This document shows positions 1,342-10,100 of a stretch of DNA of 64,000 nt, piece after piece (the first letter of the stretch is position 1; the number at the start of each line of letters is the position of its first letter). Source of the DNA: Spirochaetia bacterium. Lineage in GTDB: Bacteria > Spirochaetota > Spirochaetia > SZUA-6 > Bin103. Under the pieces are notes generated by a model. The model did no database searches. It saw only the letters and a list, made by a program, of their open reading frames with translations, and was not told the DNA's origin. Both the position numbers and the translations under genes were made by a program. Location: positions 6,048,001 to 6,112,000 of the forward strand of contig CBDBDQ010000005.1 in assembly GCA_965203905.1 (NCBI GenBank), in the 5' to 3' direction.

Positions 1342-2304
1342 GTGATGAAAGTGCTCGTTCCCGGCGACGACCCGCCGCAGATCCAGGATTCAGGCCATCT
1401 CGACCGACTGCGGGCGCGCCCCGAGATCGACGAGGTGCAGGTCTGCCGCGACCGTCCCGGCAGCCTGGAAGCGCTGGTCGAGCGGGCCACGGGGGCGCAG
1501 CTCGTGATCAACTCGCGCGGCACGGTGCGCTGGCCGGAGGAGGTATTGCGGCGGCTGCCGGAGCTGCGTCTCATCGCCACCTGCTCCATCGGCACCGACA
1601 TGATCGACCTGGCCGCGGCTCGGCACTGCGGCGTGGTGGTGAGCAACCAGCCGGGGCGCACGGCGCCGGTGGTGGCCGAGCACGCCCTCGGGCTGATGCT
1701 GGCGCTGGCCAAGCACGCCGCCTTCCACACGGCGCAGATCCGCGCCGGCCGCTGGCCGCGGGTGGAGGGCGTCTACCTGCGCGGCAAGGTGCTGGGCATC
1801 GTCGGCAGCGGCGACATCGGCGCCGAGACGGCGCGGCTGGGCAACGCCCTCGGCATGCGGGTGGTGGCGTGGACCTTCAACCCGTCGCCCGAGCGGGCGG
1901 CGCAACTCGGCGTGCGCTACGTGGCGCTGGAGGAGCTGCTGGCCGGCAGCGACGTGGTGAGCCTGCACCTGCGCCTGAGCGCCGAATCACAGGGCCTGAT
2001 CGGCGCCCCGCAACTTGCCCTGATGAAGCCCGGGGCAATGCTGATCAACACCGCCCGCGGCGGGCTGGTGGACGGCGCGGCACTGGCAGACGCGCTCGAC
2101 CGGGGTGCCCTGTTCGGGGCGGGGCTCGACGTGTTCGAATCGGAGCCGCCGCCGCCCGACGATCCGCTGCTGCGCTGCGAGCGCGTGGTGCTGACCCCGC
2201 ACGCCGCCGACATGACACCCGAGGGCGTGGAGCTGCTCAACGAGGGCGCCGTCGACAACGTCATCGCCTTCCTCGACGGCACGCCGCGCAACGTCGTCAC
2301 CTGA
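1342..2304 (+). CDS. D-isomer-specific 2-hydroxyacid dehydrogenase (SerA/GhrB-like)
   Basis: GIVGSGDIG Rossmann motif, INTARG, LDVF and catalytic TPH. Confidence 0.9.
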   Translation: MMKVLVPGDDPPQIQDSGHLDRLRARPEIDEVQVCRDRPGSLEALVERATGAQLVINSRGTVRWPEEVLRRLPELRLIATCSIGTDMIDLAAARHCGVVVSNQPGRTAPVVAEHALGLMLALAKHAAFHTAQIRAGRWPRVEGVYLRGKVLGIVGSGDIGAETARLGNALGMRVVAWTFNPSPERAAQLGVRYVALEELLAGSDVVSLHLRLSAESQGLIGAPQLALMKPGAMLINTARGGLVDGAALADALDRGALFGAGLDVFESEPPPPDDPLLRCERVVLTPHAADMTPEGVELLNEGAVDNVIAFLDGTPRNVVT

Positions 2305-2325
2305 CCGGCCGGAAGGAGCCGCACC

Positions 2326-2371
2326 CTCAGCGCGTCGAGAGGACGAACTCCAGCACCTCCGGCCGCACCTC
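2326..2371 (-). repeat. 46-bp imperfect direct repeat, left copy; an orphan duplicate of the GH2 gene 3' end (EVRPEVLEFVLSTR*)
   Basis: 42/46 identical to 4395-4440 by direct comparison. Confidence 0.95.
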
Positions 2372-2487
2372 GGGGAGGAATCCTTCTATTTGTACGAACA
2401 GAATAGTAGGGGGCGCGCGTAACGAACCCAATCCATGGTCTCCGAAGATGGCCTCATTTCGAGACACTCGCCACCAATTCGAAGTCA

Positions 2488-2874
2488 TTATGTAGGAGTA
2501 GGAAACACCGTCGCGCTACGGGCGAATCTTCTGCGCATGCTCTTCGTCTTCTTCCCTTCAATGTCACTATGCGCCGGTCGATCCGGTAGTATTGGCGTAA
2601 ATCGCAGAATCTGTCCATGCGACCAATATGTATCGGCGAGAACAGATGCTACTTTTTGGTCGGGTCCTGACCACTGTGGCCATTCACGAGCTGTGGATAC
2701 AGGTGTAGACTTGGCGCCCCAGTTCGAGGACATGGCTAACCCATCGGAGTCGTTGCTGAATGCGGCTGATGATACCGTTCCGTTGCCCTTGTCGTGTTCT
2801 GGATTGATGGCGCGATAAAAATGGTCTGTACCAGCTGGTGGTGTCGGAAACCCACGGTGCTTAACTGATTGCAT
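2488..2874 (-). CDS. Small hypothetical protein, putative ADP-ribosyltransferase-fold toxin
   Basis: 128-aa ORF in the low-GC region with the pattern FYRAI...VSSAAF...AMSSNW...P..P.RPAHSDI. The fold is inferred. Confidence 0.55.
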   Translation of the reverse strand: MQSVKHRGFPTPPAGTDHFYRAINPEHDKGNGTVSSAAFSNDSDGLAMSSNWGAKSTPVSTAREWPQWSGPDQKVASVLADTYWSHGQILRFTPILPDRPAHSDIEGKKTKSMRRRFARSATVFPTPT

Positions 2875-3338
2875 ATTTCTTCTTTGAAGAGACAGATAAC
2901 CTCTTGAATTCCTACGATTCCCTCATCTATCGTATCCCCAGAGTCGGGATGACTAATGAGATACTCTAGAGGAGATCCGCTAGTGGGTATGCTCACTAGA
3001 AAGTCTCTGCAATGGAGAGAGTCCCACTCCAACTCGACCCCACCGGAAGACAGAGGTGATATGAACGCCAGCCGCACTAGATGGTGTGAACATGAAGCCA
3101 AGCTACAGAGGAGCTCTGCACAAACCTCGAGGGACATCTGGGACATTCGAACTGAGCCGTCGCCATTCCAGCCGTCCTTCAGACCGGCCAGATGCACCAA
3201 TCTATCGGCTGCAGCCGGCACTGACCGGCGAAGTGAGGTTAAATCAGACGTAACCACGGGGTCCACCATGCGGTTTCGTTCGTCTCCCCACCAAGCGGTA
3301 GTCGTGGCAAAAAAATGTCGGGGCAGTGTGTCAGACAT
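2736..3338 (-). CDS. Hypothetical protein with LxxLxxGWNGDG...ISPxxxGGVELEW motif
   Basis: 200-aa ORF whose start overlaps the upstream gene's end by 8 nt and whose end overlaps the downstream ORF by 139 nt. Confidence 0.6.
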   Translation of the reverse strand: MSDTLPRHFFATTTAWWGDERNRMVDPVVTSDLTSLRRSVPAAADRLVHLAGLKDGWNGDGSVRMSQMSLEVCAELLCSLASCSHHLVRLAFISPLSSGGVELEWDSLHCRDFLVSIPTSGSPLEYLISHPDSGDTIDEGIVGIQEVICLFKEEICNQLSTVGFRHHQLVQTIFIAPSIQNTTRATERYHQPHSATTPMG

Positions 3339-3978
3339 GGAAAGTTTCTATGAAAGCTCTCGCGTCATGTATGATCTTATAGAAGCCATCAAGGATTTCA
3401 TCCTTGGATGGCTCACCAGTCTTCTCGACATGGAGATTAATGTTCAAGTATGCTCGCCTGATTTGTTCGTTCATAAACCGGGGTTCAATGGAGAGATTTC
3501 GAACTACGCCGGCACGGTCCAAAAACGTGATGCGAGCAGACCCGCCTACAATACGCCAGTCATCGACCTCAGGAAACCCAGAGAATGCTTTGGCTGCGAT
3601 GTAATTGAAAGCAGAAACGTCGCCTGTTGAGAAAGAAAACTCAGCGTTAAATCCGTGTGCCATCGCGTTCGCTAGAGGTTTCTCTGTGTATTCCAATACT
3701 TGGTGAACTATTTCCGCCAGGGCAGGTATTCCATCATCGCGCGGATACTCCTGGAGAACGGTGCTCCTGCGTGGTGTCAGGTCGATGTGGATCCGGTCCC
3801 GATCCAGGCTAACGCGTTTTCCAGGTCCGCCCGAAACATCATTGATGTTACTCCAACGGTACTCGTAGAAGTTTCTTCCAAAACGGTCAATCGACTCGAC
3901 CGAGTCGAGTAGCTCTACTCCCAAGATGACGAAATTGATCGAGATGAGTTCAGTTTTGGGCACGGACATACTTTTCAC
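3331..3978 (-). CDS. Hypothetical protein, TIGR04255-like
   Basis: 215-aa ORF with an alternating beta pattern and AHGFNAEF / LSIEP / YLNINLH motifs, directly downstream of a sigma70 promoter. The family call is from recall. Confidence 0.6.
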   Translation of the reverse strand: MKSMSVPKTELISINFVILGVELLDSVESIDRFGRNFYEYRWSNINDVSGGPGKRVSLDRDRIHIDLTPRRSTVLQEYPRDDGIPALAEIVHQVLEYTEKPLANAMAHGFNAEFSFSTGDVSAFNYIAAKAFSGFPEVDDWRIVGGSARITFLDRAGVVRNLSIEPRFMNEQIRRAYLNINLHVEKTGEPSKDEILDGFYKIIHDARAFIETFHV

Positions 3979-3998
3979 ATCCCACTCTTACTGTACTA

Positions 3999-4027
3999 AT
4001 GCTACGTGACACCTTCAAGATGGTCAA
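3999..4027 (-). promoter_or_regulatory. Sigma70-type promoter of the islet operon
   Basis: TTGACC (4027-4022), 17-nt spacer, TAGCAT (4004-3999); 20 nt upstream of the GTG at 3978. Confidence 0.65.
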
Positions 4028-4394
4028 CACTTGGTGACATCATATTCATCCTTTGTTGGCGACCATACCGACGCCGGAGAGCTTGGTGGGCGAGCCGAGG
4101 TAGCGCGGGTGACTAGGTCGTCGTTGAGGTAGTAGTCCGGGGCGCGCCCAGCTCGCTGGTTCCGCACTGGTAGCGGGCGGCGAATCGTACCGCCCGGTGG
4201 GCGGGCACCGAGAACCAGATCGGTCGAGCGCTCCGCGAGTGACAAAGACCGGACTCGACGCCGAGCCGGTGCTGTAGTACGAAGGGACCTCACAGTCAGG
4301 TGTCGACCGGCAGCTCCTGTGTATAGGCGATCCGTCGGGAGATGCCCGTCGAGTGGCCTGGCGGAGAGACAGCGTGCCGTCGGCGAACAGCTCG

Positions 4395-4440
4395 CTCAGC
4401 GCGTCGAAAGGATGAATTCCAGCACCTCGGGCCGCACCTC
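4395..4440 (-). repeat. 46-bp imperfect direct repeat, right copy; the functional 3' end of the GH2 gene (EVRPEVLEFILSTR*)
   Basis: 42/46 identical to 2326-2371. Confidence 0.95.
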
Positions 4441-7164
4441 CACGGCGGGCCGGAACCGCTCCGACGCCGCGTAGCTCAGCAGGCTGTAGCGGAGCTGGCG
4501 CGCCACGATGCGGCGTTCCAGGTGGCTGTCCACGTCCAGCGTGCACACCAGCAGCCGGCCGCGGCCCACCGCGGCCTCGAACAGGACCGCCTCCCGGTTG
4601 TTGCGCAGCGGCTGGTCGATCACCTGGATGATCGGCGCCAGCTCGGCCGGCAGGTCGTTGAGCACCACCGCCCGAGCCGGGCTCAGGACGCCGTTGCCGC
4701 GGAACAGCTCCTCCTCGGTGTATTCCACCTCCTCGACGATGCTCAGCAGCTCCCACCAATGCCAGTTGGAGTGGTTGTCGGTCGGGAAGTGCGCCAGGGA
4801 GGGGTGCGCGGTGTCGATCACCAGGCCGCTGGACATCGGCTGGTTGGAGACCCAGAACGGGCTCCAGAAGACATTGGCGAAGCGGATCGGCTCGGCGTTC
4901 AGCAGCCGGCGCGCGAACAGCATCACCGTGGCGCCGTCCACCAGCTGTCGCCTGAGATTCTCGGTCCACTCATGGGCCACGACCAGCCCGTCCGGCTGCG
5001 GCATCTCGAGCGTCTCCGGGAACACCCACAGGGGCCAGTCGTTGGCCACCGCGGTGTCGCGGAGCGCCACCTCGAAGGAGAACTTCTGCGGGCTGGCGGC
5101 GGACGCCAGCGGCGCCGTCACCTCGCCGAGCGGCGTCAGTGCGCCCTGCGCCACGGCGGCCGGCTCCAGGTCACCCGCGGCAAGCGCCCTGCCGGCGGTA
5201 TCCCGGATCGTCCAACCGGCCGCGGCGCCGGCGATCGGGCCCGGCCCGTAGTTCGCCACCTCGACATCGGCGCTGAAGCTCTCGGCACTGGTCCAGACGT
5301 AGCGCGGGAAGCGCGCCAGCAGGACCACCGGCTGGCAGAAGCGGCGCCACGCGTCCGGCGCGATGATCCCCTTGGAATCCCAGAAGCTGTCGAGGATCCC
5401 GACCGTGGCCGATCCCTGACCGGGATAGTCGTGGATGTCCAGGAGCTGGAAGCCGCCGTAGCCGGGCGTTCGCAGCGCGCGCTCGATCTCCTCCCGGTAG
5501 AGCAGCGCGGACAGCGCACCCGATGCCTGCACGAAGGTCGGCGCCAGGTCCAGCATGCCGCGCCGGTCGAGCGACTCGCGGAACAGCTCGAAGCTGCGCG
5601 CCCGCAGGTTGCCGCGGTACTTCGGCAGCTCCGCGAAGTTCGGGTACACCCACCACTGGCCGAGCTCGTGGGTCACCACGGGCATGTCGTAGGGAGCGAA
5701 CAGGTCGCGGTAGTCGCCGTCGGTCCGCGGCCGCTCGGTGAAAAAGAAGGATTTGCCACGGTTTTCGGCGAAGTCGCGACCGAAGGGAGTGACCCAGAAC
5801 TGGTCGCCGTCGTAGGGACGTTTCACCACGAAGTCGTTGCTCACGGTCGCGTACAGGCGCCGGGGATCCGCCTGCCGCGCCCCCGAGATGAGGCGATGGC
5901 CCGGCCGGTCGGGGGAGATCTCGTTGCCCATGGTCATCAGGCAGAACGAGGGGTGGTTGCCGTAGCAGGCGAGGATGCGGGCCAGCTCCTGCTTGCGCCA
6001 GGCGTCGTCGAACGCGGTGCGCGGGGGGTGGGTCCTGCCGGCTTCGGAGAACTCGACCATCTCCGGCTGCAGCAGGATCCCCTCCTCGTCCGCCGCGATG
6101 AACGCCGCCTCCGGCGGCGTCCACGAATGGAAGCGCCAGTGGTTGAGCCCGTAACTCTTGCCGATGCGATAGATGCGCCGCCACGACTCCACGTCCATGT
6201 CCGGATACCCGGTCACCGGCGCGTTGCCGCCGTCGTGGGTGCCGCGCAGGAACACCACGCGCCCGTTGAGCAGGAACTGCGTGCCCCGAGTCCCCATCTC
6301 CCGCAACCCGAAGGTAACCTGGCGCCGGTCCCGCGAAGCGACCGGTGCGGTACTCTCGAGGGTCACCTCCAAGCGGTACAGGTTGGGGGAGAACTCGTCC
6401 CACAACTTCGCGTCGCTGCCCAGGGACAGCTCGGTCACGATGGCAGGCTGGTGGATGCCCCCCGCCGCGAAAGACGATTGCGCGCTGACCGGAGCTGCGT
6501 CGGGTGAGTCCTTGGGCCGGACGTTGCAGCTCAGGGTCCCCGCGGCGGTCCCACCCGCGTCGTTGCCGATCTTCGACACGACACGGATGCTGCGCTCCGC
6601 CACGTTCGGGTACACCTGGACATCGGCAAGATGTACCGGATCGCGGCAGGACAGCTCGATCCTTCCGATCACGCCGTTCCACACCGTCTGGGTGTGCTCG
6701 GTGTAGGCGTGGTTGCGGAACCGTTTCGGCGTGCCGCGCGGCGTACTGTCCACCATCAGGGTCAGGCGGTGAGCACCGGGGCTCGCCCAGCGGGTGAGGT
6801 CGTAGACCTGCGGGGTGAGGAGGCTGTCGCGATACCCCACCCGTTCTTCGTCCAGCCACAGCTCGGTCTCCCACAGGCACCGCTCCAGGAACAGCAGGAC
6901 ACTTTTTCCAGCCCACTGCCGCGGTATCTCGATCTCCTTCTGGTACCAGGCCTGGCCTTCGAATACGTGCGTCCGGGTGAGGTAGGTCACTTCCCGCGCA
7001 TCGTTCTCGCGTCCGTAGCCGGCGTCGTCGGTGGACCCGGGAAGGGCGATCGAATCCGACAGGGCGCCGCCGAACCAGCGTTCCGCAACCCCCCGGCGCT
7101 CCGGGTCGAGCCGGAACCCCCAGGTACCGGCCAGCGACAAGGTCGTCGCATCGTCTTGCATCAT
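4396..7164 (-). CDS. Glycoside hydrolase family 2 (beta-galactosidase/glucuronidase-like), 922 aa
   Basis: LSLAGTWGF sugar-binding domain, LNHWRFHSW, NHPSF..MGNE (acid/base) and VVTHELGQ (nucleophile). The true start is the ATGA overlap at 7164; the 1794-aa track ORF is over-extended. Confidence 0.9.
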   Translation of the reverse strand: MMQDDATTLSLAGTWGFRLDPERRGVAERWFGGALSDSIALPGSTDDAGYGRENDAREVTYLTRTHVFEGQAWYQKEIEIPRQWAGKSVLLFLERCLWETELWLDEERVGYRDSLLTPQVYDLTRWASPGAHRLTLMVDSTPRGTPKRFRNHAYTEHTQTVWNGVIGRIELSCRDPVHLADVQVYPNVAERSIRVVSKIGNDAGGTAAGTLSCNVRPKDSPDAAPVSAQSSFAAGGIHQPAIVTELSLGSDAKLWDEFSPNLYRLEVTLESTAPVASRDRRQVTFGLREMGTRGTQFLLNGRVVFLRGTHDGGNAPVTGYPDMDVESWRRIYRIGKSYGLNHWRFHSWTPPEAAFIAADEEGILLQPEMVEFSEAGRTHPPRTAFDDAWRKQELARILACYGNHPSFCLMTMGNEISPDRPGHRLISGARQADPRRLYATVSNDFVVKRPYDGDQFWVTPFGRDFAENRGKSFFFTERPRTDGDYRDLFAPYDMPVVTHELGQWWVYPNFAELPKYRGNLRARSFELFRESLDRRGMLDLAPTFVQASGALSALLYREEIERALRTPGYGGFQLLDIHDYPGQGSATVGILDSFWDSKGIIAPDAWRRFCQPVVLLARFPRYVWTSAESFSADVEVANYGPGPIAGAAAGWTIRDTAGRALAAGDLEPAAVAQGALTPLGEVTAPLASAASPQKFSFEVALRDTAVANDWPLWVFPETLEMPQPDGLVVAHEWTENLRRQLVDGATVMLFARRLLNAEPIRFANVFWSPFWVSNQPMSSGLVIDTAHPSLAHFPTDNHSNWHWWELLSIVEEVEYTEEELFRGNGVLSPARAVVLNDLPAELAPIIQVIDQPLRNNREAVLFEAAVGRGRLLVCTLDVDSHLERRIVARQLRYSLLSYAASERFRPAVEVRPEVLEFILSTR

Positions 7165-10100
7165 GATGCCATCCCCACGGTGAGCTCGGTCACGCTGCGC
7201 GAGCCAAAGGACACCTCCACGCTCTGCCATCCCTCCGCCGCCGCGACCGCCGCTTCGCTCCCGCCGACGGCAACCGAGGCGATCCTGCCTTCCAGCGCGT
7301 GCAGCTTGACCGCCGCCGACCCATGGCCGTGCAGCACCGCGGTGACGCTGCCGCCCGCCACCGCCACCTCCTCCAGGTGCACCTTGTCGTCCTCCACCAG
7401 CAGCGCCAGGGCCCCGCACCGGGTGACCGCGCTGATCCTGCCCTCGCGCACCGCCAACTCGACCCAGGCGTCCCCCAGCCGCAGCCGGCACGCCTTCTCG
7501 TTGTCCGCGGCGGTCCAGTCGGTGTTCAGCAGGTGGATCGTCTGCACGCCGCCATCCTCCTCCCGGACGGTGTAGTACACGTCGCCGCTCACGTCCTCCA
7601 GCTCCACCGGCCACGGGATGGTCTGCGCCAGCGCCCGCACCAGCGGCTTCACGAACGGCACCAGGCGCGAGTTGCCGGGGTACTCGTGCGTGCACAGCAG
7701 GTACGCCTCCCCCTCCCCCACCCGGTGGCGCACCAGCACGGGTGCGCCGGTGGCGAGGTCGGTCGCCAGCACCTCGGCGCCGGCCAGCTCCACCTCGGCC
7801 AGGTCCACCAGCGGATGCTGGGGCACCACCGGTGGCGGCGTCGAGGTCGTGGACACCTGGAAGAAGCCGCCCACCGGGTTGTGGGAGACTGCGGGATTCC
7901 CCTGGATCCGGCCAAGACGCGGCCCGCGGCCCTTCACGGCGACGCCGAACAGGTCGCGGAAGTCGCCGTCCCGGACCAGGTTCAGAGGCTCCAGGTCCTC
8001 GACCAGGAAGCGGCGCGACTCGTTGCCGGTGGCGTGCGGCACGCTCATGAACAGCCGTCCGCCCTGCTCCACGTAGGCGCGCAGGCTCCCGTACTGCGCC
8101 TCGTCCATCGTGTTCCAGCCCAGCAGCAGCAGCAGCTTGTATTGCGCCAGGATCTCCCCGGGCGCGTCGATCGGTGCCAATTCGATCTCGCCGAGCGGTG
8201 TGCCGCAGTACCAGCGGCGCAGGATTTCCGGGGTCTGCTCCAGGTTGGGAAGCCAGACCCCGGGGAAGAACAGGTCCAGGTAGCGCAGGCCGTACTCCGG
8301 GGTGAGGGGCCGCCACTCCGGTCCCATGGCGCCGAAGTTGCGCCACACCACCGCCGGGGCGTTGTCCTGGCCGAGCGGATCGGTGCGCGAGATGCCGTCG
8401 GTCACGTCGCAGGCGTAGCGGCCGATCAGGCAGGCCTGCCTCACGCTCAGCGTGCCGCGCCGCGGGTGGGAACCCGCGTAGCGGTAGAACTCCTTCAGAA
8501 TCTGCTGGCGCATCCGCGGGATGTAGTCGCCGCGGCCGTACACCCGGCAGTGCTGGGTGCGGTACAGGTTCTCCTCGTCGTTGACCTGCACGGCGCCGGC
8601 CACGTAGGCCAACTGCAGCGACAGCCGCCACATTCTCAGGTGATAGCGCCGTTCGGGAACCACGTGGCCCCCCTCCGCCTGGTAGGTGCCCCAGAGCCGT
8701 CGATAGGCGCGCGCCGCGCCCCGCGCGTCGGCCACCAGCAGTGTGTTGTGGCTCTTGTTGAACTGGCTCAGGGTCCAGGCCATGCCCGCCTCGCAGGCGT
8801 AGGCGTGGATGCCGGAGCTGCTGATCAGGGCCAGGTTCGGCATCTGCGGGTCGGCTTCGTGTACCCACGCCACGAGTCCCCGCTGGTAGGCCATGTAGTT
8901 CTCGTACGCGGTGCGCATCGTGCGCCGCTCCGCGGAGATATTGCTCGGCAGCCGCTCCGGCATCACCGCGTAGCCCCAGAGAAAGCCGTCGTACTCGCTC
9001 CAGTAGTAGCCGCTGAACAGCGGCCCCAGGATGTCGCGCTGCTCCTTGGCCCAGTGCCGATCGAACTGGCTCGCGGCCTGCATGCTCAAGCCGAGGCGCT
9101 TGCAGCAGGCCGCGATGGCGAGCCCCCGCGCATGCACGTGGCAGCCCCGGAACACCAGTATGTTCCCCAACTGGTTGTCGCTGAAATGTTGCAGCACTTC
9201 TTCCAGGTAGCCGGGGATCTCCTTGCACATCATGCCGTCTTCGAACCCCACCAGCATCGGGTGCGGTTCCGCGCGGCTGGCGACCACCTGCTCGATACGA
9301 CCCTCGCAGCGGGCGGCGGCCGAAGCGAAGGCGACGACCGCGTCGGCCAGGGGCTCCTCCGCCTTGAGCCTGAGCCGATGGCGGCCCGCGCCCAGCGGCT
9401 CGGGAATCGGGTCCAGCAGGATGACGCCCCGTGGCAGGTGGGCCTGCACCTGCCGCTGCTCGCTGCGGCACAGGAGCTCGATCTCGAACTCGCTGCCGCG
9501 CACCACCCACGCCGGGCATACCGTCACTTCGAGATCCTCCAGCCGGCGTTCCTCGAAGTACACGCGGGCGATCATCAGGTGGTGTTGCGAATCGAGGTTG
9601 GTGATGCGCAGCCGGTTGACTCCGGGCGCCAGCCGCTGCACCGGCAGCACCACCTCCAGCTCCTCGATCGTCGGTACCCAGACGTGCCAGAAGGTCTGCG
9701 TCCCGCGGGCGACCTCGCTGCCGTTGAGCTCGATCGCGTACGGGAGATCCTCGATGATCGTGTCCGTTCCGGGGTTCCACCTGCCTGCGCGCGCATCAAC
9801 CCGATCCGGCGTCTCGCCGGGGATGACCACGGTTGACGCCCACCGGATCACGGCCGCGATGGCCGCGCGCCCGTCCCGCATCGACTCCTGCCGGCGGAAG
9901 GAACGCGGGACGTTCACCTCCACGCCGCGGCCGGGAAGCGCCCACGCCCAGTCGATCCGGAAGCAGCGGTGCACCGGGCCCCGGAAGCTGGGCGCCTCGG
10001 CCAGGTCGCGCCAGCGGCCGTCGGCCGCCGTGAGCTGCCGCAGGTCGCGCGCATCGTCGAGGTTGGGGTCGTCGTCGTCGAAGAACGCCGACAGGTTCAC

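Follow-up and report, generated by a model that had tools for sequence, protein, structure and literature searches.

A low-GC insert in a Spirochaetia genome as a probable three-gene member of the PDC-M32 family with a predicted minimal ADP-ribosyltransferase-fold protein

Within a 64,000-nucleotide stretch of DNA from a Spirochaetia bacterium (GenBank assembly GCA_965203905.1, contig CBDBDQ010000005.1, positions 6,048,001 to 6,112,000 of the forward strand; the whole stretch is hereafter called the window, and positions are given in its coordinates unless another locus is named), a small low-GC insert holds three overlapping genes on the minus strand, here named A, B and C in 5' to 3' order. 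B and C resemble the two components of PDC-M32, a candidate phage defence system; C is predicted to adopt the fold of the ADP-ribosyltransferase (ART) superfamily, and B is predicted to bind it. A first-pass annotation, made from the sequence of the window alone, had proposed at this place a defence operon of the toxin, antitoxin and chaperone type with an ART-like effector, and the present analysis follows up that proposal.

Genes of the insert and the selection acting on them

The open reading frame (ORF) of gene A extends from a GTG at 3978 (3331..3978, minus strand), which would give 215 residues. Since the homologues of A start at the ATG at 3969 (MSV...), the protein probably has 212 residues (3331..3969); M4 is invariant in the A alignment. 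Gene B (2736..3338, minus strand) is an ORF of 200 residues whose ATG overlaps the stop codon of A in the sequence ATGTCTGA, and gene C (2488..2874, minus strand) encodes 128 residues. A, B and C are translationally coupled genes with overlapping start and stop codons. The three overlapping frames of 215, 200 and 128 residues described in the first-pass annotation are thus present, apart from the probable shortening of A, and their foreign composition is equally evident: the GC content is 0.49-0.54 over approximately 2400-4000 against 0.67-0.75 in the flanks (around 50% in the islet and 70% in the genome).

A promoter-like site precedes A on the same strand (3999..4027), consisting of TTGACC (4027-4022), a 17-nt spacer and TAGCAT (4004-3999), and matches a sigma-70-like pattern at 9 of 12 positions. 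As a pattern match alone, this promoter, which the operon had been credited with from the start, is weak, with three promoter-like sites between 2200 and 4600 against 1.1 +/- 1.1 in shuffled sequences. It gains weight from a sister cassette in a genome of the same genus (cassette L002 of genome G001, its A 79% identical to that of the window), because both hexamers are unchanged there and the spacer between them differs. The similarity between the window and L002 sets in some 35 nt before the -35 hexamer and ends just past the stop codon of C, so that the conserved unit comprises around 1.57 kb, that is, the promoter and the three genes. Over 2200-4600, no non-coding RNA was matched in Rfam at E <= 1.

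The comparison of the window with L002 also provides the ratio of nonsynonymous to synonymous substitutions (dN/dS), at dS values of 0.55-1.05. This ratio is 0.20 for A, 0.21 for residues 1-154 of B, which lie outside the overlap with C, 0.10 for residues 1-46 of C, which lie within the overlap with B, and 0.16 for residues 47-128 of C. The tail of B, read in its own frame along the overlap, gives 1.34. B and C share 139 nt, and the values of 0.10 and 1.34 indicate that in this overlap it is the frame of C that is selected, the last ~45 residues of B being an unconstrained read-on. In parallel, the B proteins of other cassettes and PDC-M32A terminate at the equivalent of residue ~158. All three genes, the tail of B apart, are under purifying selection.

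Predicted folds and the B-C interface

C itself matches nothing significantly in Pfam, NCBIfam or PADLOC. Its assignment as a deaminase was considered and rejected, as the only indication was a Pfam DddA-like match of E 0.22 and 11.8 bits against a cut-off of 25. When a profile built from four close sequences was searched against 1.84 billion representative proteins, 428 representatives were found at E <= 0.001 (56 at E <= 1e-10 and 3 at E <= 1e-30), nearly all of them stand-alone proteins of 110-150 residues. The family alignment consists of 84 of the 150 listed matches, picked by eye for near-full coverage, together with the sequences of the window and of the sister cassette L015; fragments, a few long proteins and some others were left out, not systematically. 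S49 and H102 do not vary across this alignment, in which R21, F39, V50, P94 and G107 are kept in at least 90% of the sequences. The R...S...H pattern that had been picked out in C by the first-pass annotation thus falls on invariant or near-invariant columns of the family, and the corresponding codons lie at 2814-2812 (R21), 2730-2728 (S49) and 2571-2569 (H102). None of the 86 proteins has a Pfam match at E <= 0.01, and a search of PDB sequences with the family profile gave nothing at E <= 1. In the ESM Atlas C was placed near 30 unnamed clusters with values up to 0.94, and DUF6098, the nearest named one at 0.92, was not retained, this level being often due to chance.

At the level of structure, an AlphaFold2 model computed from the 86-sequence alignment (predicted local distance difference test, pLDDT, 94.6; predicted template modelling score, pTM, 0.88) places R21 and S49 on the strands formed by residues 18-23 and 47-52, respectively, and H102 opens the strand 102-106. 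Among the top rows of a Foldseek search are a RES toxin (E 0.1) and KptA/Tpt1, with a template modelling (TM) score of 0.46-0.47 and a root mean square deviation (rmsd) of 4.3-4.4, as well as diphtheria toxin, cholera toxin, ParT and TreTu. VIA, a search independent of Foldseek and run over 48,161 chains, returned 120 chains that reach Z >= 2; 12 of them reach Z >= 5, and one Z >= 8. The 50 best rows (Z 8.9 to 3.5) are all ART-superfamily or ART-like folds and include ARTs, PARPs, Tpt1/KptA, RES, DarT and ART-like toxins; in the rows of AvrPphF ORF2, Tse2, CC0527, 6b, Tne2, SPN, CopC and VPA0770 the ART-like class is background and not taken from the titles. The best match is the lobe of KptA that binds nicotinamide adenine dinucleotide (NAD+) (9ld3_A, Z 8.9, rmsd 2.9, 94 aligned residues, chain residues 86-180). 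AvrPphF ORF2 (Z 7.8), Tpt1 (Z 6.2) and TreX (Z 5.7) come next, with Scabin, diphtheria toxin, Tse2 and DarT at Z 5.1-5.4. Since a lone Z of about 8 may reflect a common arrangement, the case for an ART rests on the homogeneity of this list. At the level of the predicted fold, the ART-like nature that had been proposed for the 128-residue protein is thus supported.

ART clades are distinguished by a triad on strands 1, 2 and 5, namely H-H-h, H-Y-[EDQ] and R-S-E, according to PMC9503650. Judged by the strands on which they lie, R21 and S49 of C would agree with the first two positions of R-S-E, and the third would be a histidine in place of glutamate. H102 sits at the start of the strand that bears the catalytic glutamate in R-S-E enzymes.

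In B, an alignment of 27 sequences delimits a domain of about 120 residues (approximately residues 35-158; 2865..3236, minus strand), with W57, G99 and W105 invariant and E104 kept in at least 90%. Its motifs are DGWNGDG, which contains W57, and SSGGVELEW, which contains G99, E104 and W105, and no Pfam family covers it. The complex of B (residues 30-160) with C was predicted in three runs, next to three controls, with alignments of our own making. The complex score (ipSAE) was 0.85 in each of the three runs and 0.01 in the best of the controls; 116 of 157 solved complexes attain the mark of 0.85, as do 2 of 215 mismatched pairs, counts that are rough here since own alignments were used. Contacts agree between the runs to at least 96%, and the pLDDT of the partner is at least 87. 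The predicted interface comprises, among others, residues 50, 53, 57-62, 92-97, 102, 104 and 106 of B and, on the side of C, residues 24-43, 67 and 111-119, which face the motifs DGWNGDG and SSGGVELEW; the stretch 24-43 forms the conserved loop and the short helix that follow the arginine-bearing strand. Binding of B to C via conserved motifs of both is thus supported at the level of prediction, and B could thereby block the active site of C. The role of partner of C that the first-pass annotation had given to the middle protein agrees with this predicted complex and with the adjacency of B and C in sister loci.

A has no match in Pfam, NCBIfam, PADLOC or PHROG. Its AlphaFold2 model, computed from a 10-sequence alignment (pLDDT 89.5, pTM 0.86), has the secondary structure E-H-E-E-E-E-H followed by E-H-E-E-E-H, that is, two strand-helix-strands-helix halves. 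A Foldseek search of PDB gave 50 matches at E <= 0.001 with TATA-binding proteins (TBPs) on top, at E 9e-6 to 1e-4 but with TM scores of only 0.35-0.39 and an rmsd of 9-10; RepDE, McsB and AdoMetDC are also among the matches. In VIA, 149 residues were aligned with the TBP chain 1mp9_B (Z 8.4, rmsd 4.9), and domains of McsB/arginine kinase were next at Z 6.3-7.3. The model thus describes A as a TBP-like pseudo-dimer, a resemblance in fold only, and no sequence relation of A to TBP was detected. The families suggested earlier for this protein are not supported. Indeed, hmmscan against NCBIfam, TIGR04255 included, gave no family at E <= 1, and the 50 best VIA rows contain no chain of SecB, a result that does not in itself exclude a family outside those rows. 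An origin of A as the split-off N-terminus of M32A, the larger PDC-M32 protein, was likewise rejected at the level of sequence, with an hhalign probability of 0.1% against one M32A and 0.2% with a 4-sequence profile.

The distribution of A is narrow. A word-indexed protein search retained 7 of 202 candidate proteins, with identities of 72-94%, and a scan of a genome collection gave one locus. A is present in 7 of 61 genomes of relatives, all of one bacterial family: apart from the genome of the window (G000), it occurs in 6 of 23 genomes of the family and in none of 37 genomes from seven other families of the order. In a sample of the phylum, the only carrier among 401 genomes is G000 itself. 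Within the 24 genomes of the family A stands at nine places in seven genomes. Thus, among the genomes examined, A was found only in one bacterial family. Pattern matches to relatives of A in viral contigs (18) and in metagenome contigs (26) were not confirmed in any case. The best viral structural match of A is an unnamed protein of 202 residues (BFVD A0A515MGR4, E 6e-9, TM 0.66/0.70), well above the matches to TBP, and A-like proteins may therefore exist in viruses.

Relation to PDC-M32, sister cassettes and ends of the insert

The preprint 10.1101/2024.01.29.577857 derives 145 phage defence candidates, PDC-M32 among them and all untested, from genes that lie within BREX, DISARM and type I restriction-modification (RM) loci. 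In PADLOC it consists of two genes, M32A of ~375 residues and M32B of ~125-143 residues. The B protein of the window matches the M32A models PDLC04576 (E 2.1e-7, profile positions 253-322 of 375), PDLC04575 (E 3.2e-4) and PDLC04574 (E 1.1e-3), all three matches falling within positions ~253-333 of 375, and the N-terminal two thirds of the profile are unmatched. C is linked to M32B at the level of profiles, with an hhalign probability of 89.8% (E 1.8e-6, 104 columns) between window-type C, as a 4-sequence profile, and 11 canonical M32B sequences. Arginine, serine and histidine are invariant in these 11 and occupy the same columns as in C. Among the 86 members of the C family, 48 match PDLC04579, 19 match PDLC04578 and one matches PDLC04580. 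In the sister cassette L011 the matches of both proteins are strong (B against PDC-M32A, E 5e-25; C against PDC-M32B, E 1.8e-29). The position of B, directly upstream of C and overlapping it, is also that of M32A and M32B.

Outside the family, a canonical PDC-M32 pair was found on a Rhodococcus plasmid, where a gene for 377 residues is overlapped by one for 143 residues (558 and 139 bits). A tblastn search with the C protein of L011 gave two Rhodococcus records among plasmids and no match in phages, and with that of the window no match in plasmids. Both canonical PDC-M32 proteins match PHROGs of unknown function (phrog_30544 and phrog_31579), and PDC-M32 appears in a PADLOC listing of Sinorhizobium (S. 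meliloti) prophages in PMC12429752, beyond which the full-text literature search found no further mention of it.

By these profile comparisons C is a probable homologue of M32B, and the ~120-residue domain of B corresponds to the C-terminus of M32A, in the same gene order and with the same overlap. The differences are that B lacks the ~250-residue N-terminal region of M32A and that a separate gene A precedes it. Judged by sequence, the B-C core of the cassette is already catalogued as the candidate PDC-M32, and its novelty would reside in the separate TBP-like first gene and in a divergent branch that the PADLOC models miss. As to the earlier remark that no characterised system with this triad was known, the core is catalogued as an untested candidate, and only the three-gene form with A is new. 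PADLOC would probably not call the locus of the window, since its models do not match C at E <= 1. A statement that M32B has an ART fold was not found in the literature searched, in which the above preprint was represented by its main text; neither 'PDC-M' nor 'ADP-ribosyl' occurs in that main text.

All nine A-type loci are low-GC islets. At eight of them A is followed by two genes on the same strand, encoding 200-356 and 128-165 residues, and the stops and starts of successive genes mostly overlap or abut. Both B and C are supported by profiles at four loci (the window, L002, L015 and L011), so that the co-occurrence of the three genes, on which the operon proposal turned, is clear at four of nine places and partial or lacking at L012-L014, L016 and L017. 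In the 24 genomes of the family, PDLC04579 has matches in 9 and PDLC04574 in 11. An M32A-domain match lies directly upstream at each of the 12 distinct PDC-M32B loci, and eight further M32A-domain places have no M32B match (PDLC04579). Short B-domain proteins of 130-250 residues pair with M32B and often have other small genes in front. In particular, a gene family of ~120-145 residues precedes the B domain at five loci, one member of which resembles fn3 below threshold (E 5.5e-4, 20.5 bits; cut-off 25), and at L047 a YbjN/T3SS-chaperone-like gene (877-1308 of that locus, 30.5 bits, cut-off 22) stands directly before a B-domain gene in a low-GC islet that has no C. Long M32A proteins have a fused N-terminal region of ~250 residues in place of the separate first gene. 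By these comparisons the common denominator is the B domain together with C, and the part that precedes them is exchangeable. That the place of A is taken in sister loci by other small genes or by a fused N-terminal domain suggests an architecture in which a mini-ART effector and its common adaptor are combined with a variable module.

The genome of the window contains four B-domain loci, including that of the window: a canonical long PDC-M32 pair (C5:5889472-5890958, L035/L044), a short B-domain gene with M32B after a gene for 121 residues (C5:5370678-5371402, L040) and an orphan B-domain gene (C5:4404544-4404900, L057) are the others. At L043 (G022:C1:5063009-5064494) a canonical PDC-M32 has an in-frame TAG in M32A and an M32B match in two pieces, and is apparently a decaying copy.

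The neighbourhoods of eight fetched A-type loci were scanned over 55 ORFs. L002 is flanked by genes for DprA/SLOG and a RecQ-like helicase and, at its opposite end, by ResIII and AAA_21 genes, and at L011 HsdM and an ApeA-type HEPN gene lie 2-5 kb away. The A-type loci other than these two and L012, the window included, stand among metabolic or transposase genes. The co-location with defence genes that had been looked for thus holds for L002 and L011, and not for the window and the remaining neighbourhoods. A region of ~50 kb in G001 (C1:4478571-4529470) holds three divergent A-type cassettes (L013, L002/L003 and L014; A 31-79% identical), and is likely a defence island because of its RecQ-like/DprA, ResIII, AAA_21 and Phd/YefM genes. 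At L012 a gene of host-like GC content for an ADP-ribosylglycohydrolase (5304-6359 of that locus; ADP_ribosyl_GH, E 7e-70) lies ~450 nt upstream of the A-type cassette, which may be a coincidence or a functional link to ADP-ribosylation.

The insert measures ~2.07 kb and is bounded by a 56-nt direct repeat whose copies are 86% identical. The proximal copy (4385..4440) provides a GH2 glycoside hydrolase gene (4396..7170) with its true 3' end and its stop codon, and the distal copy (2316..2371) is an orphan duplicate of that end, covering the last ~14 codons and the stop codon. In the comparison with 8u01_A (E 1.8e-173) the GH2 protein lacks nothing up to residue 922 of 924; most of an ORF of 1794 residues that runs over it (4396-9780) is an artefact of a high-GC open frame, of which only the last ~924 residues are covered by the GH2 match. 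A D-2-hydroxyacid dehydrogenase gene adjoins the insert on the other side. In a three-way alignment, the GH2 orthologue of genome G003 (90% identical) is a mosaic of the variants of both repeat copies, which fits a divergence of the copies after duplication of the target. Third codon positions in the proximal copy are lower in GC. The 2.07 kb contain no integrase or transposase, and nothing comparable to the flanking repeats was found at the other eight cassette loci examined. Between the proximal repeat and the promoter lies a spacer of ~357 nt with intermediate GC content (4028..4384) that has no counterpart in L002. On the 3' side of C, a block of 25 nt (2399..2423, minus strand), GTTACGCGC.CC.CC.ACTATTCTG, occurs a single time in the window, with 0 occurrences expected by chance, and G000 and G001 have one copy apiece, solely behind this type of cassette. 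Its distance from the stop codon of C is ~65 nt in the window and ~270 nt in L002 (7761-7785 of that locus), and it could be an end of the cassette, a recombination site or a regulatory site.

Proposed mechanism and rival explanations

With a probability of about 0.6, the insert represents a PDC-M32 family member of three genes in which C is a mini-ART effector, B its neutraliser or adaptor and A an exchangeable sensor or regulator. C would be a minimal NAD+-binding enzyme of the ART fold and, as a toxic effector, would ADP-ribosylate a macromolecule or consume NAD+. B would be its cognate neutraliser or adaptor, with the conserved domain (DGW..G.G, GG.E.EW) clamping the loop after the arginine strand and the C-terminal helix of C. 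A takes the position that is filled elsewhere by a fused N-terminal domain or by other small genes, and would time the release of C, for example upon phage infection. The module is thus probably tripartite, toxin-antitoxin-like and of the abortive-infection type. The anti-phage function that we infer is supported by the definition of PDC-M32 through its embedding in BREX, DISARM and type I RM loci, as given in the preprint, and by the defence genes that adjoin L002 and L011.

Several observations weigh against this interpretation. At the level of family and activity, the C protein of the window has no direct PADLOC match at E <= 1, its link to M32B being made via profiles, and the literature searched holds no enzymatic or toxicity data for any PDC-M32 member. 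The ART activity of C cannot be assumed, because its third position is histidine and not glutamate, glutamine or aspartate. With regard to the fold, Foldseek found no match of C in PDB at E <= 0.001 (best E 0.1), and only one VIA row of C exceeds Z 8, a value that may reflect a common arrangement. As for the sister loci, L013 and L017 have a B domain, but their third genes are no match to the C family (0.1-0.2 bits), the partners at L012 and L016 match weakly (12-15 bits) or not at all, and L014 holds A alone. Finally, clear defence genes occur at only 2 of 8 A-type neighbourhoods, and the locus of the window itself lies between the GH2 hydrolase and the 2-hydroxyacid dehydrogenase, outside a defence island.

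Among known systems, RES-Xre/MbcTA, ParST and DarTG also combine a small ART-superfamily effector with an adjacent binding protein, and the RES, MbcT, ParT and DarT structures match C at Z 3.6-5.2 in VIA. The likeness to RES is structural only (9r35_A, Z 4.4; MbcT, Z 3.7), as neither C nor any of its 86 relatives has a Pfam ART or RES sequence match. No Xre/DUF2384 or macrodomain was detected in the partner, since the B domain has no Pfam match. The cassette differs from these systems in its third gene and in its conserved R-S-H residues, the triads of these ART-fold toxins being R-E-S or H-Y-E. CmdTAC, with which the operon had been compared from the beginning, reportedly consists of an ART toxin, an antitoxin and a SecB-like chaperone. 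The comparison stands as regards the three genes, the ART-fold effector and the neutralising partner, which here is predicted. It does not extend to homology, as none was detected between the cassette and CmdTAC components by any search run, and the two differ in gene order and in the first protein, which is modelled as TBP-like.

Part of the evidence would also suit a selfish addiction module that acts by post-segregational killing and has no role in phage defence, with A as a transcriptional or stability regulator of the B-C pair. The cassettes are indeed small low-GC islets, scattered singly between housekeeping genes, with several and partly degraded copies per genome (four B-domain loci in G000, orphan B domains and one internal TAG), and the gene order, the overlap and the predicted tight binding of B and C are typical of type II toxin-antitoxin pairs; in addition, six of the eight A-type neighbourhoods have no clear defence genes. 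We consider this explanation unlikely as a full account, because PDC-M32 was selected for its embedding in defence systems (10.1101/2024.01.29.577857), L002 and L011 stand beside defence genes, and an exchangeable first module is more typical of sensing; addiction and defence are, moreover, compatible. A decaying remnant without current function, as might be imagined from the unconstrained 45-codon tail of B and from L014, which keeps A alone, is highly improbable in view of the three intact frames, of dN/dS values of 0.10-0.21 against a copy at dS 0.55-1.05, and of the conservation of the promoter hexamers and of translational coupling.

A further explanation concerns C itself, which could be a non-toxic, NAD+-dependent processing enzyme of phosphate termini or ADP-ribose derivatives, similar to KptA/Tpt1 or RES and with A and B as substrate adaptors. 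Such an enzyme might, for instance, serve the repair of RNA, or might reverse or counter some other system. The NAD+-binding lobe of KptA/Tpt1 is the best structural match of C (Tpt1 chains, Z 5.0-6.2) and the catalytic glutamate is absent. KptA and RES ARTs attack NAD+ with a phosphate, and the H-H-h clade acts in RNA repair and in making soluble ADP-ribose derivatives, as stated in PMC9503650. The ADP-ribosylglycohydrolase gene directly upstream of the L012 cassette would fit as well. Against it, C with its 128 residues aligns only to the C-terminal lobe of KptA (chain residues 86-180) and leaves no room for the N-terminal RNA-binding lobe, which in Tpt1/KptA carries most of the catalytic Arg-His-Arg-Arg tetrad. 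Moreover, C begins its triad with arginine and serine, which is the pattern of the R-S-E clade, and not with His-His, and the mobility, low GC content, defence-embedded relatives and tight predicted partner favour a conflict module. We therefore regard this explanation as improbable.

A bolder form of the three-gene interpretation, which we put forward tentatively, is that PDC-M32B and C represent an unrecognised minimal ART-fold clade of ~125 residues with an Arg-Ser-His site, inhibited by a clamp, served by interchangeable recognition modules and unusual in its use of NAD+. The modules might then be TBP-like, fn3-like or YbjN-like proteins or a fused N-terminal domain, in a plug-and-play immune arrangement of sensor and effector, and the use of NAD+ might consist, for instance, in a histidine-assisted transfer to phosphates or bases of nucleic acids, both being as tentative as the proposal itself. 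Within this proposal, the signal recognised by the TBP-like A could be the DNA or a protein of a phage.

Collectively, these results give PDC-M32, for which no mechanism is described in the literature searched, a testable one, with a mini-ART subunit in which three residues are named and with the C-terminal domain of the large subunit as the predicted clamp. The part before this domain is exchangeable and is represented here by a separate TBP-like protein, and a divergent branch of the family is missed by current PADLOC models. If true, PDC-M32 would comprise a new minimal ART clade with a histidine at the catalytic position, and would be a further example of modular sensor swapping in bacterial immunity.

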